Shown: positions 1 to 50,562, counted from the stretch's first letter. The stretch is DNA of 64,000 nt from Patellaria atrata CBS 101060 (GCA_010093705.1 MU006091.1:310001-374000); one strand, 5' to 3'. Made by a program: numbers and translations. The notes: generated by a model not told the origin, from the sequence alone.

Positions 1-923
1 TATTTGTTTAATTGTTCACTTGCGAAGAGTTTATACCGCCCAGTCCCCCTTTGTGGGGACTGTTGAGGTTTGTGGTGTGATATATGTCCCACATTTGTGC
101 AATCAGGGTCAGCCATACAAGGCAAGGCGGGCAGAGACGGGTCAATGACCACATTACGCCGTGTTTGTTTGTTATGCAAAATTTCTCTATACAGTCAGCA
201 CGGGAGAGAAAGCTGTTGGAGATCTTCTAGCTTTGCAAATCTCCCGTCTTTCTAACTTACTATCACTGCAAAACTACGTCAAATCATCTATTTACACTTC
301 AACGATGAAGTAACGACTATCTTTCAATCCGAAGATACAACCCGAAACCGAGAAATGACGAACTGTCCTCAACTAGGCAGAAGTTCTGGAATGATCAGGA
401 GAGAAACTGATAAATGCAGTGAGGTCGGAGCCTGGTGCAGGAAGTTTGTAATATGATGTCGATGATTGGTCCAACAAATTCCTGAACAATGACCTTCGAT
501 TTGCAGGATTTGATTTATCATTTCAAGCTCAGACTCTACCTCGTACAGTGCGTTTACGATTATTCTCAGAGCACATGAACTTACAGGCCTGATCGTCCAT
601 CAAACGTTGAGTGGAACTGCACCTCACCAGTCTCCTCGGATGAGAAGGGCTCAGGATCGCAGTTGGTCACTGAAAAGCTTTGGCCAGATCAAAAGCCATT
701 TCAGTATCACACAAGTAACGCAATAGGTACTCGATACAGATATGCTGTTAAGTTCTTGTACTGTACAGTCATTGGTGAAACCTTGAATTAGAAGTACTTT
801 TTACTTTTGAAGATATATCTAATATACAATGAGCAGAACAAAAAAGCAACGTCTTTAACAAAAGGGTATATAACAGGACAGGAAGTATGAATATAAGAGA
901 AAAGGTGTGACTTCTAGTCGCCA

Positions 924-3077
924 TTATGGCCCTAGCTCTGTCCCTATATGTACAGGACTCCAACCTACCCGTGACTTCGGAGGCAACGCTTCCAGAAATG
1001 AGTCGCATATATACTGAACCTGTTCCGACTTTAGGTAGGGATTCATTGGAAGGCTTAATATTCGTTCAGCTAACCAGTCGCTGTTCGCAAGTATTTGACC
1101 TTCCACGGTGTATTTCTCAAAAGCCAGATGCCGGTGTAAAGGCTTTGGATAGTATATTCCAGTCGAGATGCCTTTCAGTTCGAGTTCTTTGCGAATCTTC
1201 TCCCTCATATTCTCATTCTCGACAGTTACTGTGAACAGACCCCGGGCGTGTACATCTGTTTGGGAAATCTTCTGCACTGGGACTATTTTTTCCAGTTGGT
1301 CTTCATACATCTTTGCAACCCTCCTTCTCTCATGCAATTCTTCGTCCAGTATGGCTAACTTCGAAAGAAGTATTGCACATTGCATTGAGTCGAGACGCCC
1401 GTTAAGCCCAACCCGGATACTCATGGATCTAGCATCGTCCGTTCCGTGCCACCGTATAGATTTCCACCTTTTAAATCTTTCAAGGTCATCCGTGAATAGC
1501 GCTCCTCCATCACCGAATCCACCCAAAGATTTGGATGGGTAGAAACTAGTCGCCGTCATGTCTGCTAGAGTACCCACCCTTTGACCATTTTGCGATCCAC
1601 CAAATGACTGAGCAGCATCAGCCAAAACAATCATCTGAAACTTTCGAGCAATTCGATTGATCTCTGCGTAGTTTGCGGGCAGTCCATACAGGTCGACTGC
1701 GATTATAACTCTGGGTCTCAGTTTACCTTCGGTGACGACTCTCTGGATGGCGAGTTCGAGCGATCTGATGCAGATATTGCATGTATCTCGTTCTACGTCG
1801 ACGAAAATGGGTACCGCACCTGCTGTCAACACTGCGTTACACGTTGCGTTGTAGGTAAACGCTGGAATGAAAACAGCTTCATTTGGACCTAAATCTTCGC
1901 CCATCAGCGCTATCGTCAATGCAGTGGTCCCACTCGATACGGTCAGGGCATACTTTGCACCAGTGTATGAGGCCAACGATGCTTCCAACTCAGTCACCTC
2001 TGGACCGTTTATATATTGCATATGATCCAGGATCTTTGAGAGACTGCGTTCAATATCCGATCGCAAACGAACCGCGGGTGTTTGCATATCGAAAAGTGGT
2101 ATAGTCGTTATACCCGATTTAGGGGGCAAATAAGGGGATTGAGCCGCCTTCCCTTCTGATTTTGATGCGGCCAGAATATCCAACGTTACTTCTAGGGCAC
2201 GCCTGCCATCTTCCCCGGTGATGCAGGGCTTACCCCTCGTCCTTACGCACTGAACAAACTTGCTGAGCGCAAGGCCCAAAGGATCGTATCGGACCTTGTC
2301 CGCACCATCCATCAGGTCGCTGAATTTTGCTTTGAGAGTTATCGGCCTGGTGTCTTCGATGTAACATACCAGGAAGTCGATAAACACAACACCATTTTCG
2401 TATTGGATCAGCATGGTCCTTTCCCTCCTCTCAGCTCTTCGACTGGCAAAAAGCCGTACAGCACATTTACCAATAGAAAATGTTGCTCTAATGTCATCAT
2501 TCGAGCTACCATTGGTGCGTGGGTCTACCTCCATATTCTGAATCTGTCCGTGAGCCAATTGAAGGGCCAGATCCACGTCATGAATGAGAAGGTCCAAGGC
2601 AACATCCACGTCATTCCCACGACCCGTCCAGGTGTTTGTACGGTGACATTCAATACGAAGAGGAGTTTCATGTTTATCGAGGGACAATCGAGTGATAACG
2701 AAACGTTCCTGATGTCCAACCTGTAATATTCGACCGTTCTTTCTGGCAGCTTCCAAAATTCGGTCCGCATCCTGGAGTGTCGAGGCCAGTGGTTTTTCAA
2801 CATACACATCTATTCCCTTCTTCAGGAGATGAACCGCTACCTCTGCATGGAATGTTGCTGGTGTGGTAATCGTAACCATATCGATCTGCCCTATGAACGG
2901 GTCCAATGTTGTCTGTGCAGAACAACCAAACTCGTTTGCAAGCTGGATAGCTCTATCAAGAGCTTTGTCGACAATAATCACCAGGTCAACATCTTCCATT
3001 GCTGCGTATTTGGTTGCATGATATCTGCCAAACATCCCGGCTCCAACAACGGCGGCTCGCAGGCGACGAGTTTCCAT
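924..3077 (-). CDS. Fused Gfo/Idh/MocA NAD-dependent oxidoreductase (GnnA/WbpB-like) + DegT/DnrJ/EryC1/StrS PLP aminotransferase (GnnB/WbpE-like), intronless
   Basis: 717-aa ORF. N-half has the Rossmann motif VVGAGMFG, EKPLA, LQVGHQERF and DVALDLLIHDVDL. C-half (from about IPLFDMQ) has SSGTTAL, DAAQSFGG, SFYPSKSLGGFGDGG (PLP lysine) and GLNGRLD. Kozak-like start (caaaATGG). Confidence 0.9.
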   Translation of the reverse strand: METRRLRAAVVGAGMFGRYHATKYAAMEDVDLVIIVDKALDRAIQLANEFGCSAQTTLDPFIGQIDMVTITTPATFHAEVAVHLLKKGIDVYVEKPLASTLQDADRILEAARKNGRILQVGHQERFVITRLSLDKHETPLRIECHRTNTWTGRGNDVDVALDLLIHDVDLALQLAHGQIQNMEVDPRTNGSSNDDIRATFSIGKCAVRLFASRRAERRERTMLIQYENGVVFIDFLVCYIEDTRPITLKAKFSDLMDGADKVRYDPLGLALSKFVQCVRTRGKPCITGEDGRRALEVTLDILAASKSEGKAAQSPYLPPKSGITTIPLFDMQTPAVRLRSDIERSLSKILDHMQYINGPEVTELEASLASYTGAKYALTVSSGTTALTIALMGEDLGPNEAVFIPAFTYNATCNAVLTAGAVPIFVDVERDTCNICIRSLELAIQRVVTEGKLRPRVIIAVDLYGLPANYAEINRIARKFQMIVLADAAQSFGGSQNGQRVGTLADMTATSFYPSKSLGGFGDGGALFTDDLERFKRWKSIRWHGTDDARSMSIRVGLNGRLDSMQCAILLSKLAILDEELHERRRVAKMYEDQLEKIVPVQKISQTDVHARGLFTVTVENENMREKIRKELELKGISTGIYYPKPLHRHLAFEKYTVEGQILANSDWLAERILSLPMNPYLKSEQVQYICDSFLEALPPKSRVGWSPVHIGTELGP

Positions 3078-3550
3078 TTTGAAAGAATCCTATTGATATC
3101 AGAATTTTAATGTTACTGGACGCTCTGAGACACTCACTAAACGCACTGACATGCAGCGTTCAGTCCGAACCATTTTTCACTGAACAGGTTATGGAAAGTG
3201 TAGCGTCAGAACAGCCAATAGTCGCTTGTGCACTTCAGTTCGTGGGACACTAGTATGTCTTTCAAATAGTAACCTTACAGTCATCAAGGAATATCACAAC
3301 AAGGAAGAGATAGTCATGGACAAACGAACATCGAAAAGGGTTTCAAAGTTGTATCGATAAAAGCTTTAAATAATGATCTATTTCGCGCATTACGTTGAGA
3401 CAGCATCGTAGAGGTCATAGTCTCTGCTAGTGTTGGGAGCTGTCAAAGCAAGCGACTGGGTTCCAGATTTCTTTGAACCTTCCAACAACACATGTGAGCT
3501 TTATCTTCTCTCTTAATGCGTTGATTATACCTTGGAAAGGGCTGGTTGCG

Positions 3551-3717
3551 GAGCCACTTTCCATTTGCGCAAATCAACAGCTATTCCTCTTTGCTCAACG
3601 ATTTTTCACCACTTTTTCTACCTTCGGTCCTCCTTCTATCTATAGAAGATATATGGAGCCTCTTTCCATTTACGCTAATCAACCGCTATCTATTTTCTCG
3701 ACGATTTCTGCATCTTT
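3551..3717. repeat. Two imperfect ~65-bp direct repeats in the divergent intergenic region
   Basis: ggagccacttttccatttgcgcaaatcaacagcta... (~3551) versus ggagcctctttccatttacgctaatcaaccgcta... (~3655). Confidence 0.7.
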
Positions 3718-4044
3718 AAACCGTACTGGGCCATCCTCCCACCTATAGAAGGTCTATGGTAACATCTAACGTGAGACATTCTTTATGCTTGTAGGAATAA
3801 GTATAAGTGATAAGTATAACATATATACTAATCATTCTCAAGTTCGTTTCAAAAACATACGTACCTTAACATGAAAATCCGAATTCTACAATAAGATGGC
3901 GAGAAGATATATTTCATGAAATAGAAGAAGTAAAGAATAAGTACAGCTAAGCGAAAAGACATATCACAACTCATTCTGCCAATACGCTCCATCTTTTCCG
4001 TTTTCATTGCACCCATTTCTGTACCAGACCACCCAAACCTCAAG

Positions 4045-4872
4045 ATGTCTGCTCCGACTTCAACTCTGGTAGCACCTCCCCTTATTCACCCTACCGCCAT
4101 CATCGATCCAAGCTGCACCCTTTCCTCCAGCGTGGAAATCGGTCCTTTCTGCTTCCTCGGTCCCAACGTACACATCGGCCCCGGGAGCAAACTCGTTTCT
4201 TCAGTTACCGTCATCGGCTCCACCACCATCGGCGCAAACTGCACCATCTGGCCCTCCGCCGTTCTCGGCAGCCCAGCTCAAGTCCGCAACTTGGGCTCTA
4301 CCGGCGGTGCCCTGGTGATCGGCGACCACTGCATCATACGCGAATGCGTAACCATCGGCCTCTCCTCCCTAGGCAAGGAGAAGCCAACAAGGCTCGGGAA
4401 CAGAGTGTACATCATGACGAACGTGCACGTTGCGCACGATTGCGTGATCGGCGATGATGTGACTATCATCCACGGTGTTGGGTTAGCAGGACACGTCACG
4501 GTGGGACGGGGCGCGACTATCGCTGGCCTTACGGGCGTGCATCAAAATATTGTTATCGGGGAATTGGCGTACCTTGCAGGGGGTGCGTTTGTGGGGAGCG
4601 ATGTGTTGCCTTTCTCTCTGGTGAAGGGGAATAGAGCGCGTACGTTTGGGGTGAACGGGGTAGGATTAGTGAGGGTGGGCTGGACCGAGGAGAGGATAAA
4701 GAGGTTGGCAGAAGCGGTGGAGTGGCTGTCTAAGGACCCAAAGAATATAATGGAAATGGAACAGGAGGAAGACGGGGATATCAAGAGGGTGGTGGAATTT
4801 GCGATGGAAAGCAAGAGAGGTGTTTGTTTATGGGAAAGTGTCTCGACTAAAGGGAGTAGATTAGATTTGTGA
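4045..4872 (+). CDS. lpxA: LpxA-like acyl-[ACP]--UDP-N-acetylglucosamine acyltransferase (left-handed beta-helix plus C-terminal helical domain), intronless
   Basis: Hexapeptide repeats IHPTAIIDP and VEIGPFCFLG; HVAHDC (catalytic His); LAGHV; VHQ; LpxA-type tail DVLPFSLVKGNRARTFGVNGVGLVRVG ... EFAMESKRGV. Confidence 0.88.
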   Translation: MSAPTSTLVAPPLIHPTAIIDPSCTLSSSVEIGPFCFLGPNVHIGPGSKLVSSVTVIGSTTIGANCTIWPSAVLGSPAQVRNLGSTGGALVIGDHCIIRECVTIGLSSLGKEKPTRLGNRVYIMTNVHVAHDCVIGDDVTIIHGVGLAGHVTVGRGATIAGLTGVHQNIVIGELAYLAGGAFVGSDVLPFSLVKGNRARTFGVNGVGLVRVGWTEERIKRLAEAVEWLSKDPKNIMEMEQEEDGDIKRVVEFAMESKRGVCLWESVSTKGSRLDL

Positions 4873-5139
4873 TATCCGCGTCATACGAATGAAAATAGAA
4901 GATTCCTCGTATGTGCACTATGTACACTTTGTTTTACGTGTTAGTTATACTCGACTCACTTAGGCCCAATACTATTAATACTACTCTAACTCCTATGTTA
5001 CGGTAGAGAAAAGGCCTTGACGCCCGCTCGCTTGCAAGATAACTGGACGTACAAAACGATAAGGGGTCCCCCTACTCGCTATTTATTAAAAATAAAGGAG
5101 CAGGCATAGAAAGAAACTCGAGAGATAAATCATCGGCAG

Positions 5140-5334
5140 AAAAAAAAAATCGCAAAACAGTTCCCACCCCTCCGAAGAGGGTGTGGTACATCTGCTGCCC
5201 TCAACTTAGGGCCCAAGATATGGGGGCTTTTTGCCCCCTCGGGGAATCGACCCCGGGGTTGTCGAGATATGCCCAGTGGTAACAACCACTGGGCTACCCC
5301 GGGAGATGTTAAGTAGTTGCTGGATTATTGTTTA
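5140..5334 (-). ncRNA. Structured Pol III-type ncRNA or tRNA-derived SINE-like element, copy 1
   Basis: Minus strand has an A-box (TAGCCCAGTGG), a B-box-like GGGTCGATTCCC, several hairpins including a cUUCGg loop, and a poly-T run at the 3' end. A near-identical copy is at ~50352-50562. Confidence 0.65.
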
Positions 5335-5683
5335 TTACGTTACTAATATGAAACCTGCCGGCATGCAGCACGAGTGCCAAGGCAGTCACATGGAGAGTGA
5401 ATGGTAACTTAACTCACGTGTTAGTCATTGTATTTAAGAATGTTGACTACCTGGGGTATCACTTCGAAATATGGCTTATACAATGGTAAACTTGGTTGGC
5501 TCACCCATGAATGCAATGGTCGAAAATCGAATACTTTCTCAAATATCTACACACTAACTCATCACCCACTGTTGAAAATGCTTAAGAATAATTAAGTAAT
5601 ATGGTATTCACTGTACCTAGCTAATATTAGACCTTCTCAACATCATAGAACCACACATTAACCATCACTACACCAGCGAAATA

Positions 5684-6639
5684 ATGGTCCTCCCCAACGA
5701 GTTAGATCGCATGGAGACAAATGCCTCTAATGCATTCAATGACGACGAACCCCCAGACAAACAAATATTCTAATGGATTACCTTGTTTGAGTACACACCA
5801 GATCAAGCCCGGACAGAGATAAAGCGTCAGCATGCTCACAAGTCCAGAGCGCGAGTGTTAGACCACCTCTGGAGCTCCGTACATGAGGAATTAGAAGGAT
5901 ATGGACACGACCGCTTCTCTTTCGAGCATCAACTTGCTCTGACAGCTCAGCGCCAACGTACCGTACAATCTGCTACCAAAATCTCATGGAAACCCCACAA
6001 TGGCTCGTGGTCCTCGGGGAGACTCTTGATACCCCACAAGCGGTGCGGGCCGCTGCATCCTTAGCTCGAAGTCTAGCGGTTCTTTTGAGAGTCGATGACG
6101 AGGGGAGGGAGGTACGGTGCTGCAAGATCAGCACCTCATCCAAGACAGCGATCGAGAAGTGGTGTGCTGCCCAAGGAATCGCGAGGCCGGAATTTGCACC
6201 GTACGATGTGGCTGAGAAGGAATTCGAGGCCTATACGGTGTACCCGACTTTAGGTGTGGATACGACGATTCCGCAATTCAGGGGGACCGTTGGGGTAATG
6301 CCATCACCGATGGAGGACGAGTACCCGGTTTGATACATTTTCTATAGTAGGTTGGCGGATGAGGAGAAGTTAGATTCGCTTCTTGGATTAGAGGAAGAGC
6401 CGGTTCTTAGACAGGCTACTGTACGGGGAGGATTTCTGAAGCAGATGGGGGAGTATAAAGGGCTCTTTGACGCGCCGATGAGTGCGAGCGTAGAGGGGTT
6501 TGCTTATTGGGTGCAGTCTGAGGAACACGAGGATAGATTGAGAGATTATGAGTCGGCGGCCTATAAGGTCGTGAAGTGTATGACTGAGTTCGGAGATGGA
6601 TCTTGCACGAAGGGGTGCACATTTCGATGGGCTTCATAG
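5684..6639 (+). pseudogene. Disrupted gamma-glutamylcyclotransferase/AIG2-like fungal protein
   Basis: Motifs YPTLGVDTTIPQFR, YPV*YIFYSRLAD, YKGLFD, LRDYESAAYKVVKC and GCTFRW. In-frame TAA (~5771), a frameshift near 5985, and TGA at an expected Trp (~6331). Confidence 0.65.
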
Positions 6640-7395
6640 ATACCTTTCCAGTTACTACTGCACATACTATATTTTTAAGAACAGTACTATCAATATGATT
6701 TCTTAACAACTCATATTTACTAGGTGATCTGGAAATCACAATCTCGACTAGAAATGGACGAGGATGGCGTTGATATCTATGATGATTTACGGTACAACCT
6801 GATTAAGGTGGTGAGGTTGAGATCCTCAGCCACTCCAACTGAAATTTAGCTTTTTTCCAGCCACTGATTCAGATTTCTTGTTTCGACTTCACCCCTCATC
6901 AACATCGACTGCTATTTCGACTGCGCATACTCCAAGGGCCAACAAATGTCTAAAGAGAACTACCGCGGCCTCGACCGGAACAACCTCTGGTTACGATGGG
7001 TCTGAAGATGGTATAGTCACGGAGGGCTTCCCATCAATACTCCACTCCGTCTGCTACCCCTACCGATGATAAAGGAGCGAAGTCTTTCCTTGTGGGGAGT
7101 ATAGCTAGCCAAACCAAAATGAACGTAGTGCTCACATGGATTCCCGACTTTAACCAGAGAAAGAACTGTGATTTATCTTACGCACTTGAGGATATCAATG
7201 TAAGCTGAATGTAAGTCCATGTGTAGGACTTTTCTTCTTGCACTTACCTTCTCTTTTTCGTATCCTTTGTTACCAGTCCTACATAACTTCGATCTTTAAG
7301 AAATTCACGGTCCTTGGGTACACTATATGTGTGATGAGTTAACTTCACTTCTTCTCTTTGCGATGACCACAAAAGTGTAGTGGAGTATCGGAACG

Positions 7396-9007
7396 ATGCC
7401 CACAGAACAACCTCCTCTTCCAACGCGGCAACTCTTAATTCTTTCGATATGTCGGTTCGCCCAACCTTGTACGTCTTCAAACTCATGTTTATCTACCTTT
7501 CTGATCAGCCTTAGTCGCTTTGGGATCTATATTCCCATGTATTCCAAACTACATTGAGGATCTTGGTATTCCACAATCGAAGGTTGCGATATGGCTCGGT
7601 GCACTAGCAGCGACTTTTGCACTTTGTGAATCTATGTTCGCCATTCCATGGGCATTTTTCTCTGATTATGCTGGCCGAAAGCTGGCCATCGTTATTGGGC
7701 TTCTGATCTCCATGGTTGCAAATATTTGCTTAGGTTTCTGCACATCAATCGCTCAGTCCATGGTTTGTTTTGCCGTTGCGGGCGCCGCAAATGGGAATCT
7801 CGTTGTGATGCGTACAACCATAGCTGAGCTTGTTCTGGAGAAAGAGTTACAGTCGACAGCGTATTCGTTTCTCCCTATCTCTGCGAGCATTGCTTCGATT
7901 ATAGGACCTGTGGTAGGGGGTAATCTGGGAAAGATTGTGCCGAGCGACCACAATCTTCTTGCCCTTTTCCAAAGTCATCGGTTTGTTTTGCCTAATCTCG
8001 TCTCTGGGTTTGTGTTTCTTCCTGGAATTTTTACAGCAATATTGCTCCTCGAGGTAATCACCATTGAATGAGGTTATTGCGTATTCCGCTGAAACGTCCA
8101 GGAAACCTGCCATGATCGGAGCTTGCGTCTATTTACCACCAATGGATACGAGACCCTTGAAACCAGCGACGCAAGCAACATTAACGATAGCTATGAAGCT
8201 GACATTGCTTTGTTGAATCTTCATGAACCTACAGATGAAGAAGAGAGTCCGAAAGGAAGGACTAGACATCTCAATGATTTTGAAAACACTGAGGGTAAGA
8301 TTGTTACGGTCGACAACAAACGCCGTACATGGCAGCATTTTGCAAATATCTATATGTGGATCAATAGCCTCTCAGGCCTGCACACCACAGGATTCGATCA
8401 TCTCCTGCCTGTTTTCTTGCACTCCTCCACTGCACGGATACATTCTGGATGGAGTCTCATACAGTTTGCACATGGTTTTGGGAAAGGTGCCATTTCCCTA
8501 TTTCAACTGCATAGGCCATAACTAACAACAAGGAAAGACTCGCAGTCTATCGGCACCCTACTTGCGGGTTGCGGAATCATTCCTATACTCACGAATCTCT
8601 TTCTTTATCCTCGAGTAGCCCGTACCTATGGCCGTCTTAAGACTCTTCGATTAGGCCTTACTATTACCCCCTTCATTTACGCTACTTTTCCATTCTCAGT
8701 CGTCCCTTCACATCCAGCCGTGCAGATGATCTGTTTAATCGGTTTCTTACTCGTCAAAATAATAGTGTCAGTTTCAATCCTACAATGTTGCATGATCCTC
8801 TTAACCAATTCGGTCCCGCCAAGGGATCTCGCCTCTCTCAACGGGCTGAACTTTGCCGTTGCGTCGATTTGTCGAGGGCTCGGCTCGTTTATCAGCGGTC
8901 TGATGTTTACTTTCGGCATGAGCCATGGATATGCTATTCTACCTTATTGGGCTCTTGCCGGGTTTTCTTCTACTGTGATTATTCTTGCTTGTGGAATATC
9001 ATCTTGA
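7396..9007 (+). CDS. MFS transporter, spliced (about 3 introns)
   Basis: Exon 1 MPTEQPPLPTRQLLILSICRFAQP; MFS motif FSDYAGRK; GAANGN; GPVVGG; C-terminal ASLNG...RGLG helices. Introns at about 7470-7514, 8054-8101 and 8487-8538. Confidence 0.8.
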
Positions 9008-9920
9008 ACCTTTCTTTACTTCTAAACGCGGTAGATATCTCTTTTCACAGATACTGGACGAAGCGTGATATATACTGTTGAGTTACCTCTAAAGGTCAGT
9101 TAGGGACAAAAACACGGTATGGTGATACCTGGCTCATTTCATTTCCCCCTTACCTCTCGTAACCGAGAACCGGGGATCTAATATGGGACTCCGGAGATAA
9201 AATGAAAATGGACTCGGGAGCAGTACCTTACACAGATAGGTCTGTACGAGTTACGTATAAGGGAACACCCTCTATCAACGATTACGTTCTTCACGTACAA
9301 GCAGTCTCGAAGACCATTTTAGGAGCATGAAAGGACACAGTAATCCACGAGAACAGATTGGAAGATACTCGATATCATTCCACACGCCATCCATGACCCG
9401 ACACGGGACCATCAGAAACACAACCAACACTGGACAGGGGCACTTTCACCACCTCCTCAAGATTCCAATTCACGACACTCCTTCAGCGGAAACACAGACT
9501 TGGGTATTAAAATCTCCCTTATAACCCGTTCCTTCTAAACTATGACAATGGCTTATTACCGTACCGCACGAGGTGTTGTCAAAACCCATGGGACAGATCC
9601 GTGCCCACCTCAAAATCACACTTTTCCAACTCCAATCCAATAGCGCGAAGAGTGAGGAATAATTCAAAAATAAATAGTAAGTATTACACTCCCTATGCCC
9701 AACTACATTCGGGAAAAGTTATAGATTATTCGAATTCATCTTGTCGTCTCGAGAGAAAGATTAACTTGCCAGGTGGATTTTAGGGTGTCCTACGAATTCT
9801 GACCACATCTGGTGCCCGTAATTTTCCCCCGGTAACGACAAAATATCCCTGAGATCACTAGATTGCATTGCAATGTCCCGACGGATCCGTCTCCCCCTTC
9901 TCCTGCAGCCCCTGGCAGTA

Positions 9921-12719: not shown

Positions 12720-13365
12720 AGCCATCTCTAAAATCTCTTTAAAAGGACGTGGATTTTTTTTTCGGTCAGTTACCTAACGCTTAGAGATAGAGTCAATCGA
12801 CATAGTTATTTAGGATCTCGTCGAGAAATGCCGCAGATTCGTGTGCGATATAAAATTTTAGTTAGGGTGATAAAAGTTCAGTGATCGAAAAGGGTGGTAT
12901 GAACTTAGGCGCCTTGGGTGCACATACCACCAACCCGACCGAACGGAATTATCTAAGATCACGGAGAAAAATCTCGACGATTAGTGTGCGATATAGATCT
13001 TTGACATGAATATGGTGGAAGTTCACTTTCCGGGACGTCGCCTCGCCCGATACGGAACTGCGACCCGGGCGTAGACTTGTGCCGAGCATCGGGTATTTGT
13101 CGGTGCGCGCACTGTGCGGTATCACCAGCACGAACTATATCCAAAATGTTGAACAAGTATTTAAAAAGGACGTGATTTTTTTGGTCGTCTATATAACGGT
13201 AAATAGAACAAGAAATCGACATACTTATCTAAAACCACGACGAAAAATCTCGACAGTTCGTGTGCAATATAAATTTTTGAGATGTAGGTGGTGGAAGTTC
13301 AGTTTCTCCATCACGTTACGCACTCGAGTACTCTTGGTATTGAAATCGTGCATTGCCCTAAAGGG
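12720..13365 (-). repeat. Degenerate repeat array (about 3 units), reverse complement of the 17.5-19.2 kb array
   Basis: Recurrent core tcgtgtgcratata...ggtggaagttcagt and ggacgtgattttt at about 12750-12880, 12950-13030 and 13165-13310. Confidence 0.75.
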
Positions 13366-13838: not shown

Positions 13839-16579
13839 ATGGCTCACCTGGCCAGGTTAACGAATCTCGCAGACGAGTTGGTCAGATCGTTAACTCCTTC
13901 ATCATTATCAGTACGCAATCCCTCCGTTTCGCATCATCCCTCCATGACTTATACTGAGTAGAAAAGCCCTCGTGAGTTCAAACAATGCAAAGATCAAGCT
14001 TTGAAAGGAATACGCTCCCAACAATACGCTCGTGTCGACCAATTCGACGTTCAGGCCCACTACGAGGGACTGGTGGAAAAGTTCGTTGTGCTCCATAGAG
14101 AAGAGCTAGCAACAGCGCTCGAAATAAGATTAGATGAATTGTCTAAACGGAGTTCCAAGTGGACACCTGAGATTTTGTTCTTATTTTTGAGTCTTTCTGA
14201 TCGACCTGCTGAGAAATCGGATGTCAAAGATCTGGAACTTCTGAAACCACCGCCGTCACCCCCGCAGTTGACTTGGGCGGAAATTATTGCAGACGATCCC
14301 CTAGATGAAGAGGGCGTCTGGGACGATATCGACTATGCTGCTCAGAGTTCAGATGATGAGCGAAGTACGAAGGGGCGTCACCGATCACCTTCTCTCGGGA
14401 GTAGTCCACCTCTCACGCCTGCAGAGGTTGGAGTTGATGCTTCTCCGAGCGATTATATCGTTGTCCCTGAAACAAGCATCCTTGACGGAATTGAAGATGC
14501 TCAATTCTGGAGAGAAGGCAAGGAAACACCAGGGAAGGCTGCTGAATCCACGCCTCACTCTAAATCAACTGAAATCAGCGAACTACAAGCCATCAGAGAG
14601 ATCCTCTTCATGTTAGCAGGACTACCGACTGCACTATTTCAATACGATGAACGTTCCGGTATTATAAGGTACGTTCCAAAATTTAGACTGAGTCATGCTA
14701 TGGTAGATACATTCCACCAAACTCTCGACTCTTTCTTAAGGATTGGTACCGCACTATGGCATCTACGGCTGTTCATCAAGCAACAGCAAAGCATCCCACT
14801 TCTTCAAACCTTTCATGCTGTCGTAACTCGCCGTCTTAGAGACTTCGATATCCGCCTGTCAACTATTTCTCAAAGACTGATGGGGCATGATAAGCCCATA
14901 GTAGTAAGCTTAATCCAACTACAGTCAGAGATATCTTCACTATCTCGAAATCTACTCGTGCTAGCTCGATTAGTCAATGATTTTGCTTTAGTAGCAGAGA
15001 CGCAGCCTTTCCTGCATCTGGAAGCATTATACCAACAGAGCAGTGAAGCACAAATGGTTGGGGATGCAGATGCATTGGAATTCTTCGGTACATTATTCTT
15101 CGAATGTCTTCAAACATATTTGAGGCCAATCCGGCAATGGATGGAAATGGGGGAATTAATACCGGATGACAAAATTTTCTTTATTTCAGTCATGGACCGT
15201 AGTAGTGAAGCTTCAAATCTATGGCATGATCGATACTCTCTTATGTACGGCAACAAGGGTCGTCTTCACGCACCAACATTTCTGCAACCGGCAGCGGAGA
15301 AGATATTCAAGTCTGGTAAAAGTGTGATATTTCTAAAAGAGCTTGGGAACAAGGCAAGCCATAATTCGAGGGTTGATACTGAGCCACCACTCACCTTTGA
15401 GAGTTTGTATGGATCTGATGAAATAAACCTTCTGTCTCCGTTCTCTGAAATGTTCAATACGGCTTTTCAAAAATGGATGGCGAGTAAATATAGCTTTGCT
15501 TCCACCATACTACGACAGCAATTGTACGATGAATGTGGCTTGTGGGATATGTTAGACTCTCTGGAATACTTGTACTTTTCTAGAGATGGAACAATCTTTC
15601 AATCCTTTGCCGACACAATATTCGAGAAGCTTGATGGAGGTAGGGGTGTCTGGAACGATCGATTCGTCCTCACTGAAATTGCTCAGAGTATCTTTAGTAC
15701 TATTCCGTCTATTGACAGTGGACATATTTTCGTACGTACTACCACAAACAGTAAAGGACGTTCCGTGAAAGCTTTTTCTAGCATACGTATTGACTACACC
15801 GTAAGTCATTCAGTCTAATCTCTCTATTATAAATTAATGAAGAAAAGATCCCCTGGTCCATCGCCAACGTAATCCAGAAGTCCTCCATCGCCGTATACCA
15901 ACAAACACACACCCTACTCCTCCAAACCTATCGCGCGAAGTACGTCTTACGCAAGCTCGCACTTCGAACTCAAAAGTCCACAGCGCAAAGCTACCACCTC
16001 CGCCACCGCCTCCTCTGGTTCACCGATGTCCTCCACTCGCACCTGACGGAAAACGTGCTAAAGCCCATGTCCATCGATCTCCGCCAGAAAATGGACAAGG
16101 CGGAGGACATCGATGCTATGTCCTCTGTTCACGAAAATTTTGCAACAACAGTTCAATCCCGGTGTTTGCTCTCCGGAAACCTTGCGCCGATTCGTCAAGC
16201 TGTGGTCTCGTTACTTGATCTTGCGGTTTTGTTCGCGGATACGCAGGCTAAGGAGACGAAACTGTCGGCATCTAATACACCGGTCGAAGGTCAGCACCAG
16301 GTCTCCCCGTCCCGGGCTCGTCATTCTCGCAAACTGAGACGTGGCCAAACCTCAACCGAAGATGCCTACTCCGAGCCAGAATCTGAAGAAGAAGACTACG
16401 ACGCTCATTCTGATTCTGACATCGGGAGTCAGGGATCTTATGAGGAGAAATTGCGGAGGATGCGCGAGCACTTCGACAAGTTGAGATACTTCGTTACAGT
16501 GAGCTTGAGGGGTGTCAGTAGGGCGGGCGGAGAGACAAGCTGGGAGATGCTGGCGGACAGGTTGGAGTGGGAGAGCTGA
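13839..16579 (+). CDS. GCP5: Gamma-tubulin complex component, Spc97/Spc98 family (GCP5-like), 2 introns
   Basis: ARVDQFDV..YEGLVEKF, WTPEILFLFLSLSDRP, ISELQAIREILFMLAG, YLRPIRQWM, WNDRFVLT, C-terminal WEMLADRLEW. Introns at about 13911-13961 and 15801-15848. Confidence 0.85.
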
Positions 16580-19519: not shown

Positions 19520-22500
19520 TCACACACACTCCCACTCCGCAAAAACGCACCATCTCGCGCTTCGATCCGCGAGAACCAATCCCCTCCAAATCCCCCTCTC
19601 ACCGATCTTGATGACCGTCTCCCACGTGGTCCCATCACCGTTTTCGCCCGCTCCCATCATATGCTCGCTCTTGCGCGTGAACCTGATGATCTTGCCCGCG
19701 GGACTCTGTACCGCTAACTTTGCCGGCTTCACACTACCCGCGCTCCCCCCGGCACTGCTCGGGTTGGAATATTGAGAGCCGGAGGCTGAGGTGCTGATCA
19801 TGCTGAGGGCGGAAGTCGGTCGAACGAAGGGATTCGGGGTTGTGCGGCCGTTGTTAGTCGTACTGGAGGGATCCGGAGAAGAGGCGGTGGACGAGGGATT
19901 TTGGCGGACGGTGAAGACGAAGGTGTTGTTGACGGCAAGGCGGGCGCATTGAGGTTGGGCGACGTAGAGGTCGTGTCTTTGAGCGTGGGGTGTTGGATGT
20001 AAAATTAGGAAGTCGTAAGGTGGGTTGGTGCCGGAGTGGGTGAGGGGAAGAGCGAAGCTGAGAGGATGAGGATTGGATTTAATGGAGTGCTATAGATAAT
20101 GATTAGCGAAAAGGGTAGGCGAGGATTGAAGAAGCGGTTTAACTTACCATTAGGCCACGTTTGCCAGTATACACTTTGAGAATGGCTTGGCCTTCATCGC
20201 CTGGTAGGATTGCTTTGACTGTATAACGCTTCCTACCTCCTATCCACTCGGCTTGAGCGAGAGCTCTCTTCCTCACTAGCTCACCGCTTTCAAAGAAGTC
20301 ACCATCTGGATCCCTAGCAAATTGTCGAGCTTCCACTTCAGCCACACATTCCACATCTTCGGGAACATAGAAATTGATGTGGGCCATTTCTAGGTTGTCG
20401 AGGTTTAGCAGGCTAGTATCGAAGTCGACCAACTCCAACCCATTCTTGAAGTACGGCGGGCATGTACAAGGTAAAGCCATCAAAATATCATGTGCCAGTG
20501 GTGGGCAAATATGCTGCTGCTCTGGCAAGAGAGGGACATGTGTATAGCAGATCTCTGTCGGTCTGGTTAGGAACCACCATCCATCAGCGACATGAGACCC
20601 AGCGCTCGAATACTGCGACCGTTTCGGATTCGTGGGATTTGCTAACGAGCAATCCATGATACGCCATTCGCCATCAACAATGACCGTATTCCACCAGTGA
20701 TTTGGACGAGCGACCATATCAAAATCTAGGGCTTCTCCGGGACTTTTGAGATATCCACGGACTATTTCAGCATGAAGGCCCATAGCACTGCACATTTCTG
20801 CAACAAGAAGTGCAATTTCTTTGGAACAGCCTCGCTTGGTCTGAATTACCCTTCTGGAATCGATTTCACCCACAAAATCCTCTTCCCACGCGACACGCTC
20901 GCTAACCCAGGTGAAGATAGCACGTAACCTTTGGACATCACTCCTGTATGGTCTACAGACATAACCCTGGGCAAGACTTGCTGGAGTCGTCATTGGAGGT
21001 AGATTATTAATGAACCGGGAGCTTTTGTCGACTAGGGCAAGGTTGCAGAGCGTGAAATCTGTTGGATCGAGGATAGGTAGGCCGTCTAACCCTTCGTCTC
21101 CTTCGACCGTCTCAGTGAGTATGTCCACAGGATTGATGACTGCGATATCCATCATCTGGCACCGTTCTGCTCTTTCTACTTTCTCATTTTTACTCAATGA
21201 ATTCGATCGATTAACATCTCGTCGAACCTGTACCCAGTCTACGCAGCTTCCAAGGCCCATATCTCTCGCGGCTGCACTTGATCCCGGTCTGGATTGACCA
21301 CCAGAAATACCCGTAAAGCTACTAGGAATCATTTTGCTTTGCCGCGATACGGGCCTGCTACTAGGATTTGATGATATCGTAGTCCTTGCGCTCGCTGCTC
21401 CAGTTTTGGCTGATTCGATCATCTTCTTGAAAAAGCCGCTTTTCTTTGGTTTTGGTGCAGCCAGTCCGCCCAGAATCCCTCCCCCATCGTTAACGTTGGT
21501 TGCCCAATCTTCATTATTGGACCTAGAGTCGTGACTGCTGTGGTATGAAACACCCGTGAAAGGAGATTCTGGCCGATCATTGAACCCAACTATGCTGCGG
21601 CTTTGACGTGTATCCATAACACTTTGCGGTCTTTCTTTAATGGTGCCTCCAAGACCCCATTTTCTCCTAGCTAGACTACCCGCACTAGTAGCACTGACGC
21701 CGCCCGCCGAAGAATGACTCATCAAGCTTCTGTTGGTTGACTGGGTGGTGTTACTGCTGTTGGTAGTGGTGCTTTGTATGGTTTTGGTGGTAAAGGTTCT
21801 TCCTAAGGCTTCACGGCTAAGCTCATACGCAGATTTTCGATTCTTAAGCCTTCGGGAGTCTTGTCGTGGTGGTGCAGGATCTGATTGTTGGCTATCAGAC
21901 GATTGAGGTCTACCCATATACGGCGAGTTCTTGGGAGGAGGAGCTGGAGATGGTTCTGTAGTATCTGTAGGTAGGAAAAGCTCATCCTTATGTCGGCGCT
22001 CCTCTTGCTGTTGCATCTTTCTCAGTCTACTTTCCATCCGTCGAACATAGTTCTTAACTTGCGGAGGGCCATCATCTTGCCAGTCATCTTCATACTGACC
22101 GTTTTCTTCTGTGCCGTACCCACTATCCTGTGACATACCGATTCCCATAGATGTGTGCGCCCTTAACTTTCGAGTATTTGAGCTGTATGCTTGATCGAAT
22201 GCTTCTGGTGACCACATTTCAGGGGATCCGGGTACTTGAGTGTTCTGTATTGAATTTTGGCGAGACACGCTCATGTCTTGTAGAGATGACATGACGTCGT
22301 TCATAGCATTTGTGAGAGGAGATGGAGTGAAGTTATTGCGCTCTGGCATAGGTGATGGCGGTCCTGGAGTGTGGTATCCGCTTCCATATTGATGGGTATC
22401 ATCGTACTGGGCCATGGGGGATGGAACCCGACTAGGGTTATATGCGACACGATGTGGTGGAGGCGCAGGCGGGGGAGGTGAGGATCCGACATCTTCGTAT

Positions 22501-50351: not shown

Positions 50352-50562
50352 AAAAAAAAAAAAAAATTAAAGAAAAATTGCAAAACAGTTCCCACCTCTC
50401 CGAAGAGAGGTGGTACATCTGCCGCCCTCAACTGAGGGCCCGAAATATGGGGGCTTTTTGCCCCCTCGGGGAATCGACCCCGGGGTTGTCGAGATATGCC
50501 CAGTGGTCGTTACCACTGGGCTACCCCGGGAGATGTTAGATGGTTGCGGAATTATTGTTTAT
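50352..50562 (-). ncRNA. Structured Pol III-type ncRNA or SINE-like element, copy 2
   Basis: Same as 5140-5334: A-box TAGCCCAGTGGTAA, B-box-like GGGTCGATTCCC, perfect ccacctctc-TTCG-gagaggtgg hairpin, poly-T tail and an upstream TATA-like ttataaac. Confidence 0.65.

Follow-up and report, generated by a model that had tools for sequence, protein, structure and literature searches.

How do genes that look like those for bacterial diamino-sugar and lipid A enzymes come to lie side by side in a fungus, and what might they make there? We asked this of a 64,000-nucleotide stretch of the wood-dwelling Patellaria atrata CBS 101060 (GCA_010093705.1 MU006091.1:310001-374000; hereafter the window, with positions counted from its first letter), near whose left end a gene for a fusion of GnnA-type and GnnB-type proteins stands head-to-head with a gene for an LpxA-family protein. 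LpxA and GnnA/GnnB belong to the textbook enzymology of the Gram-negative outer membrane; we know of no fungus that is known to use them. We found that the pair is a two-gene module of bacterial descent in a fungal chromosome, as seen from the identities of the genes, their intact catalytic motifs, their ancestry and their residence. We also lean, if only slightly, towards a coupled three-step route in which the fusion and LpxA together would convert UDP-N-acetylglucosamine (UDP-GlcNAc), by way of its 3-amino derivative UDP-GlcNAc3N, into UDP-3-N-acyl-GlcNAc3N. The module consists of the following parts, in which NAD is nicotinamide adenine dinucleotide and PLP is pyridoxal phosphate.

924-2096, minus strand: GnnB-type domain, fusion residues 328-717 and stop; PLP-dependent sugar 3-aminotransferase of the DegT family (from PF01041, motifs and tree)
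2097-2147, minus strand: linker, fusion residues 311-327 (about 17 residues), at the site of the bacterial gnnA stop and gnnB start
2148-3077, minus strand: GnnA-type domain, fusion residues 1-310; NAD-dependent UDP-GlcNAc 3-dehydrogenase-like, GFO/IDH/MocA fold (from PF01408, motifs, structure 7bvj and tree)
3078-4044, no strand: divergent intergenic region, presumably a shared promoter; 967 bp, GC content 0.394, AT-rich and gene-free
4045-4872, plus strand: LpxA-family trimeric left-handed beta-helix acyltransferase, 275 amino acids (from equivalogs, structures, residues and tree)

An earlier note on this DNA had described two open reading frames (ORFs), head-to-head across about 970 bp and with eukaryotic start contexts, and a scan of the ORFs agrees with it. 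The frame at 924-3077 on the minus strand is open for 717 codons and that at 4045-4872 on the plus strand for 275, the spacer between them is 967 bp, and the start contexts are tcaaaATGG for the fusion and tcaagATGT for LpxA, both with A at -3.

The fusion carries recognizable domains of both families. PF01408 (GFO_IDH_MocA) matches residues 6-122 (1.6e-26) and PF01041 (DegT_DnrJ_EryC1) residues 339-694 (8.4e-92). Motifs are intact in the GnnA-type half (A half), with GAGMFG at 12-17 (GxGxxG), EKP at 94-96 and LIHDVD at 164-169, and in the GnnB-type half (B half), with DAAQS at 487-491 and SFYPSKS at 511-517, in which lysine 516 aligns to the PLP lysine of structure 4qgr. Among solved structures, 7bvj was the only match to the A half at E<=1e-15 (7.8e-29, residues 6-304), while the B half matched the DegT aminotransferase 4qgr best (1.4e-86), ahead of WbpE (1e-73). 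We take 4qgr to be a Brucella enzyme, which the structure table does not state. The fusion fell short of the cut-off of NF040723, the archaeal UDP-GlcNAc 3-dehydrogenase equivalog (145.9 bits vs 450), as did the bacterial gnnA of locus L001 (123.9), one of the loci considered below. Thus, because a bacterial gnnA fails as well, NF040723 does not define the bacterial GnnA family. The structure 7bvj is named GnnA in a passage of a preprint, and the roles that we assign to the gnnA and gnnB genes are those given in PMC7663294. The deposited record of the fusion carries the generic name 'pleiotropic regulatory protein DegT...'.

The divergent gene encodes an LpxA by domain, profile and structure. 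Its product matches the hexapeptide family PF00132 (2.4e-25) and the C-terminal family PF13720 (4.6e-13), passes the cut-offs of both NCBIfam LpxA equivalogs (NF003657, 247.9 vs 226; TIGR01852, 241 vs 231.05), and found 17 LpxA chains at E<=1e-20 in the PDB, the best at 8e-45; its Atlas model overlays bacterial LpxA clusters with template modelling (TM) scores of 0.89-0.93. In an alignment with the E. coli K-12 enzyme, the Patellaria protein keeps Q73, H122, H125, G143, H144, H160, G173, N198 and R204, whose roles, including that of H125 as the catalytic residue, are those described in the LpxA literature. H122, H125, G143, H144, N198 and R204 are kept in 16/16 rows of the fungal-type clade described below, and H160 is lost in five of its rows (Mycena, P0007, P0008 and two Podospora). 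The Patellaria protein differs from that of E. coli in having V for D74, R for L75, N for K76 and R for H191, and positions 74-76 (DLK in E. coli, VRN in Patellaria) vary within the fungal clade. We decided against deriving sugar selectivity from positions 74-76, as we know of no validated rule and the sequences are too few. In the LpxA of Leptospira, the choice of sugar nucleotide depends on a backbone carbonyl. Relatives of the Patellaria protein are deposited under the generic name 'trimeric LpxA-like protein'. These results support the three domain identities, GnnA, GnnB and LpxA, that the earlier note had proposed.

We considered that the region might be bacterial contamination or a chimeric assembly join, which both proteins could suggest, as they are bacterial-type and their nearest non-fungal relatives are bacterial. 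However, the fusion is 100% identical to a P. atrata CBS 101060 protein located on a contig of 1,828,131 bp, and GC content is flat over the first 10 kb of the window (0.44-0.49, with no break), compared to 0.62-0.65 in the loci of the bacterial relatives. GC and GC at third codon positions (GC3) are 0.479 and 0.462 in the fusion and 0.553 and 0.638 in LpxA; both genes are within the spread of the fungal exons in the window (GC 0.442-0.582, GC3 0.399-0.674). An AT-rich, gene-free spacer and eukaryotic start contexts also argue against bacterial DNA, as does the presence of relatives in independently sequenced fungi. Two public runs of one sample contain the region, and both behave as DNA. A single run contig of 11,104 bases spans window positions 1-5170, with both genes and the spacer unbroken, and has a word depth of 459.7, compared to 459.2-470.9 for the contigs over neighboring housekeeping genes; in the other run the same comparison gives 320-322 vs 327-344. 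The run contigs leave 5182-5253, inside a dispersed repeat, uncovered, and none bridges the pair to the genes on its right; thus, the join to those genes rests on the deposited assembly and on the equal contig depths. With no GC break and with depth equal to that of neighboring fungal housekeeping genes, contamination or a chimera is very unlikely, to the point that we give it almost no credence, and we conclude that the DNA is fungal.

In alphaproteobacteria, the counterparts of the two halves are adjacent genes. A metagenome scan (5 loci) and a reference-genome scan (4 loci) turned up loci where a gnnA-like gene (about 330 codons) is directly followed by a gnnB-like gene (about 375 codons), as separate ORFs and mostly in different frames. 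These loci are 39-41% identical to the fusion in the A half and 56-58% in the B half; the '57-59%' printed by the scans refers to the B half only. Closer bacterial proteins for the A half (49-52%) came from a search for its short relatives, including those of a Micropepsaceae metagenome-assembled genome (MAG) and of 'Alphaproteobacteria bacterium SO-S41'. Of 401 sampled genomes in the class of G001, 204 match the whole fusion at E<=1e-40, a tally in which the unpublished genomes G244 and G044 are counted. With the A half as query at E<=1e-75, 0/401 match. Thus, the Micropepsaceae-like group, the nearest for the A half, is outside that sample, and its gnnB and lpxA did not enter our comparisons.

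We built quick maximum likelihood trees of each half. The A-half tree had 120 rows, after removal of L022 (a duplicate of L006) and the partial L002; the B-half tree had 109 rows, after removal of L022 and the partial L004 and L005, and took 62 of the 71 single-domain matches shorter than 480 amino acids, plus three named ones. An identical set of 12 fusion proteins (Patellaria, five Beauveria rows and six others) forms one clade in both trees, with a Shimodaira-Hasegawa-like approximate likelihood ratio test (SH-aLRT) value of 100. In the A tree this clade is within a 39-row alphaproteobacterial clade (SH-aLRT 99), beside the Micropepsaceae-like group, and in the B tree it is within a 19-row alphaproteobacterial gnnB clade (SH-aLRT 99) that contains the gnnB of L001-L003 and L006-L009. 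A gnnA lies directly upstream of gnnB in L001, L002 and L006-L009; none was found upstream in L003. The simplest reading of these trees is that an adjacent alphaproteobacterial gnnA-gnnB pair was fused once, and that the fusion was then inherited by or spread among fungi.

Three observations concern related loci and fusions. The bacterial gnnAB loci often sit after two divergent CurA-like reductase genes; in three alphaproteobacterial loci, L001 (84-2097), L006 (7715-9809) and L007 (7578-9847), two tandem, divergently oriented genes for CurA-like NADPH enone reductases precede gnnA-gnnB as a conserved neighborhood. P0133 and its cluster are GnnA-GnnB-type fusions of 726 amino acids on small contigs from several sources, including a microbial MAG catalogue; P0133 groups with bacterial sequences (Ectothiorhodospiraceae gnnA) and not with the fungal clade, and from this placement gnnA and gnnB seem to have been fused independently in bacteria. 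There is also a second, unrelated family of GFO+DegT fusions, of about 750 amino acids, in Tricladium, Nemania and Hyaloscypha bicolor (P0142, P0143, P0173, P0270). It is 25-33% identical to the A half of the Patellaria fusion and in both trees groups with bacterial triple fusions (GFO+hexapeptide+DegT); it is seemingly a WbpB/WbpE-like pair that fungi acquired from bacteria in an event of its own. The Patellaria fusion is separate from this clade of triple fusions and second-type fungal fusions in both the A and the B tree. Thus, the alternative that the earlier note had named, a WbpB/WbpE/WbpD-type route acting on UDP-N-acetylglucosaminuronic acid (UDP-GlcNAcA), is disfavored by both domain trees and by the ranking of structures, and we favor UDP-GlcNAc as the likely substrate of the fusion, a Gnn-type rather than a Wbp-type enzyme.

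The closest named relatives of LpxA are fungal. Our listings of relatives held the best 120 matches and drew on deposited gene models only. Among the matches listed for LpxA, every named protein at 48-52% identity comes from a fungus (Xylogone sp. PMI_703, Mycena rebaudengoi, Podospora australis, P. fimiseda and Trichoderma evansii), with two phyla represented, whereas the best named bacterial LpxAs are 39-43% identical. A quick tree took 87 rows: the first 80 of the 120 listed matches, three further ones and rows for four bacterial loci. In it, the fungal-type proteins group together as a 16-row clade (SH-aLRT 100) whose stem measures 0.53. A more careful tree of 53 hand-picked rows, which included representatives from an exhaustive search, gave a fungal-type clade of 17 rows with full support (100/100) that holds every named fungal relative; the stem of this clade is 0.53-0.54 changes per column. 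Branching within the clade is discordant with fungal taxonomy, with Mycena beside Xylogone and Patellaria, and Trichoderma apart from Podospora, and the Patellaria protein has a long terminal branch (0.71-0.9).

From these identities we propose the following mechanism, which rests on family membership and gene order. An adjacent alphaproteobacterial gnnA-gnnB pair would have been fused into the single reading frame of the first gene. The GnnA domain would oxidize UDP-GlcNAc at C3 with NAD+, and the PLP domain of GnnB would convert the 3-keto sugar, which is unstable, to UDP-GlcNAc3N by transamination, the fusion passing the 3-keto intermediate from one active site to the other. The second gene, transcribed divergently from the same 967-bp spacer, would supply an LpxA-like trimer that, with its conserved histidine as base, puts a fatty acyl group, probably an (R)-3-hydroxyacyl, on the 3-amine, as adjacency and the chemistry of LpxA suggest. 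The acyl donor would be acyl-acyl carrier protein (acyl-ACP) or acyl-coenzyme A (acyl-CoA), and the product UDP-3-N-acyl-GlcNAc3N. O-acylation of UDP-GlcNAc by LpxA is thermodynamically unfavorable and depends on LpxC to draw it forward; N-acylation of UDP-GlcNAc3N does not have this handicap. Thus, an LpxA without a visible LpxC makes most sense beside GnnA and GnnB. In our view the product would go into an acylated amino-sugar metabolite or glycolipid peculiar to fungi, rather than complete lipid A.

A broader reading is possible, although we put it forward only tentatively. Scattered fungi, in at least three classes of Ascomycota and a Mycena, may have domesticated LpxA, and some of them may have coupled it to a fused GnnA-GnnB, yielding a lipid X-like N-acylated 2,3-diamino sugar as a new fungal glycolipid or a signaling or defence metabolite. 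LpxA would then have switched from acyl-ACP to a cytosolic donor and spread from fungus to fungus, a transfer that we propose because the LpxA tree does not follow fungal taxonomy.

Several results weigh against a module that arrived as a whole and acts as a single route. With respect to ancestry, the neighbor of the fungal LpxA clade in the careful tree is an alphaproteobacterial group, but with an ultrafast bootstrap (UFBoot) value of only 22; an approximately unbiased (AU) test did not reject a fungal plus alphaproteobacterial grouping (p-AU 0.415), a group that was chosen after seeing the tree. The exhaustive search, over 1.84 billion representatives, found no bacterial protein above about 44-45% identity to LpxA (its longer matches, FabZ-LpxA-type fusions and the like, we judged irrelevant), and the LpxAs of four bacterial genomes that bear gnnAB are only 37-41% identical to that of Patellaria. 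In addition, no lpxA was found beside gnnAB in five longer bacterial loci, up to 10 kb on either side. Co-transfer of LpxA with gnnAB is thus not established, given the unclear bacterial sister and these low identities, although a shared alphaproteobacterial origin of all three domains is possible. The earlier note had proposed a horizontally acquired proteobacterial-type module, which holds for bacterial ancestry and fungal residence but not for the arrival of the three domains together; likewise, its expectation that each domain would nest in one bacterial clade is borne out for the GnnA and GnnB halves, which fall within alphaproteobacteria, but not for LpxA, which has no supported bacterial sister. 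With respect to function, the choice of sugar nucleotide by LpxA cannot be read from sequence, and both proteins lack an N-terminal extension like a mitochondrial presequence; Patellaria LpxA has about 12 extra N-terminal residues, none of them basic, and the fusion begins at its Rossmann motif. Both proteins are thus probably cytosolic. To our knowledge the fungal cytosol has no free acyl-ACP, so that this location leaves the acyl donor unexplained; the donor may have changed in a cytosolic LpxA. Finally, among the matches listed, the named holders of LpxA and the named holders of the fusion (Patellaria and Beauveria) overlap only in Patellaria.

This last point bears on whether the two genes are simply neighbors rather than one pathway, such that UDP-GlcNAc3N has another fate (e.g., N-acetylation or incorporation into a glycan) and LpxA acylates O3 of UDP-GlcNAc or some other nucleotide sugar. 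Xylogone, Mycena, the two Podospora and Trichoderma evansii have LpxA but are absent from the named fusion holders, and Beauveria has the fusion with no LpxA-like protein among the matches listed. Furthermore, LpxA positions 74-76 and 160 differ among members of the fungal clade, which is expected if acceptors differ. However, since the listings hold the best 120 matches from deposited models, absence from them is weak evidence, and two further pairs of LpxA and fusion, probably on the same contig in two more genomes, are suggested, though only by the equal lengths of the contigs that carry P0006 and P0122 (5,729) and P0005 and P0127 (13,902). Thus, the co-occurrence of the pair in other fungi, which the earlier note had called on to be checked, is incomplete, with Patellaria as the sole named overlap and two more pairs suggested. 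The head-to-head arrangement on a shared spacer and the unfavorable energetics of O-acylation without LpxC also speak against separate pathways, and we regard these as rather unlikely, though they merit real weight.

We also considered a fuller lipid A-like pathway of which only this pair is in view. LpxC, LpxD, LpxH/I, LpxB and perhaps further enzymes would then be encoded elsewhere in the genome or just to the left of the window, and the fungus would make a true diamino-sugar lipid A or an analogue of lipid X. Plants have a complete pathway of this kind, and the contigs of the DNA runs reach 5-6 kb to the left of the window. However, neither the ORFs of 110 or more amino acids (window 5-64 kb) nor selected ORFs (1-20 kb) included any Lpx family apart from LpxA, and we saw no further pathway gene in the 59 kb to the right of the pair and no fungal LpxD-like name among the best 120 LpxA relatives. 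We consider a fuller pathway improbable. The phrase 'lipid A entry pathway' in the earlier note is overstated, as we saw no lipid A gene besides lpxA in the window, and a lipid A framing is probably too strong altogether. A last alternative is that a transfer left behind genes that are now decaying or neutral and make no useful product, for which the long terminal branch of Patellaria LpxA could speak. In contrast, both frames are fully open with all catalytic and cofactor motifs intact, composition is fungus-like rather than that of the bacterial relatives' loci (62-65% GC), which implies long residence, and relatives with conserved active sites persist in several fungal classes. Leftovers are in our view highly improbable. 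The reading that we prefer is still a coupled route through the fusion and LpxA.

The surroundings of the pair are those of an ordinary fungal locus, with these further features.

801-968, minus strand: 3' end of the deposited fusion model, with a predicted intron (about 819-968) and a last exon (801-818), an alternative to the ORF end at 924 (from comparison of P0121 with the ORF)
5145-5335, no strand: short dispersed repeat just 3' of the LpxA gene, which bounds the module and is not part of it; a copy at 50373-50562 is 91% identical over 191 bases
7505-9081 (exons 7505-8071): major facilitator superfamily (MFS) transporter, from the domain search of window ORFs
13962-16579: gamma-tubulin complex protein, intron-split, from the same search
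19520-20089: CYK3, from the same search

The deposited model of the fusion (P0121) has 708 amino acids, compared to 717 in the plain ORF. It contains an intron of 150 nt, with the donor CGG/GTAGGT near 968 and the acceptor TATTAG near 819, and its five-codon last exon (IYLQK-stop, 801-818) replaces the final 14 residues of the ORF. The claim that both ORFs are intronless thus stands for the plain frames, both of which are open, but not for the deposited fusion model with its 3' intron; if the predicted 819-968 intron is real, it was gained by a gene of bacterial descent.

As the earlier note had it, the pair is contiguous with intron-containing fungal genes, in that eukaryotic genes continue rightward on the same sequence; to the right of CYK3, the window ORFs include syntaxin 6, Rrp15, ERG2, ceramidase and a GH31 glycosidase. 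The left flank within the window is 923 bases, and the domain search recognized no gene in it. Between the LpxA gene and the MFS transporter, a gene at 5774-7069 on the plus strand has no Pfam family, and its low-confidence Atlas model is weakly like a cluster of the ascomycete gamma-glutamylcyclotransferase family (TM 0.51). The dispersed repeat (about 190 bases at 5145-5335 and 50373-50562) has GC-rich palindromic stretches. Word depth of the run contig is raised there (bin 4670-5336); ARAGORN did not recognize the repeat as a tRNA, and neither it nor a search for local repeats turned up anything in 4.8-5.5 kb. At 12858-13286, 427 bases of the assembly are missing from the contigs of both DNA runs, where 6 other letters stand in their place; thus, the sample that was sequenced has an intergenic indel relative to the assembly.

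We conclude that the transfer is real, that the DNA is fungal and of bacterial descent, and that it is apparently unreported. A literature search with subscription journals outside its scope found no report of LpxA, GnnA or GnnB in fungi, and the sole preprint that matched LpxA, fungi and horizontal gene transfer used lpxA only as a simulated donor gene. Each enzyme is itself a member of a known family; what is new is the host kingdom, the single GnnA-GnnB polypeptide, the divergent pairing with LpxA outside a lipid A operon, and a distinct LpxA clade with all the named fungal relatives. The locus provides a clear case of two adjacent bacterial genes that became one eukaryotic gene by fusion after transfer, and it turns fungal acylated diamino sugars from a vague possibility into one that is directly testable. 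The product, if it exists, could be a new and immune-active or antibacterial glycolipid, and the enzyme could reveal how a transferase that uses acyl-ACP adjusts to a cell that lacks free ACP in its cytosol; if the genes are idle, an ordinary bacterial-to-fungal transfer remains.

Comparison with known systems places the module between several of them. The GnnA and GnnB of Acidithiobacillus ferrooxidans and of alphaproteobacteria, which convert UDP-GlcNAc to UDP-GlcNAc3N for diamino-sugar lipid A, have the same domain families and motifs as the fusion, but are encoded by separate ORFs and serve hosts with an outer membrane, whereas in Patellaria they form one polypeptide in a fungus that has none. 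The WbpB/WbpE/WbpD route from UDP-GlcNAcA to UDP-GlcNAc3NAcA, its 3-acetamido derivative, uses the same type of chemistry (3-oxidation, 3-transamination and N-acylation by a hexapeptide transferase), and the solved structure of WbpE matches the B half; the acyltransferase of this route, however, is an acetyltransferase of the WbpD type, while the Patellaria partner is an LpxA with the long-chain C-terminal domain. With the LpxA of lipid A synthesis, the Patellaria protein shares the fold, the equivalog score, and the conserved His125 with its partner residues; it differs in its separate clade of all named fungal relatives, in VRN at positions 74-76, and in the lack of an lpxD-fabZ-lpxA-lpxB context. 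The closest eukaryotic parallel is the plant mitochondrial lipid A pathway, in which a eukaryote likewise has an LpxA of bacterial descent; the solved Arabidopsis LpxA (3t57) matches the Patellaria protein at 1.7e-34, a lower score than most of the bacterial chains listed. Plants have the whole lipid A pathway and target it to mitochondria, whereas in Patellaria we see only LpxA, paired with a GnnA-GnnB fusion.

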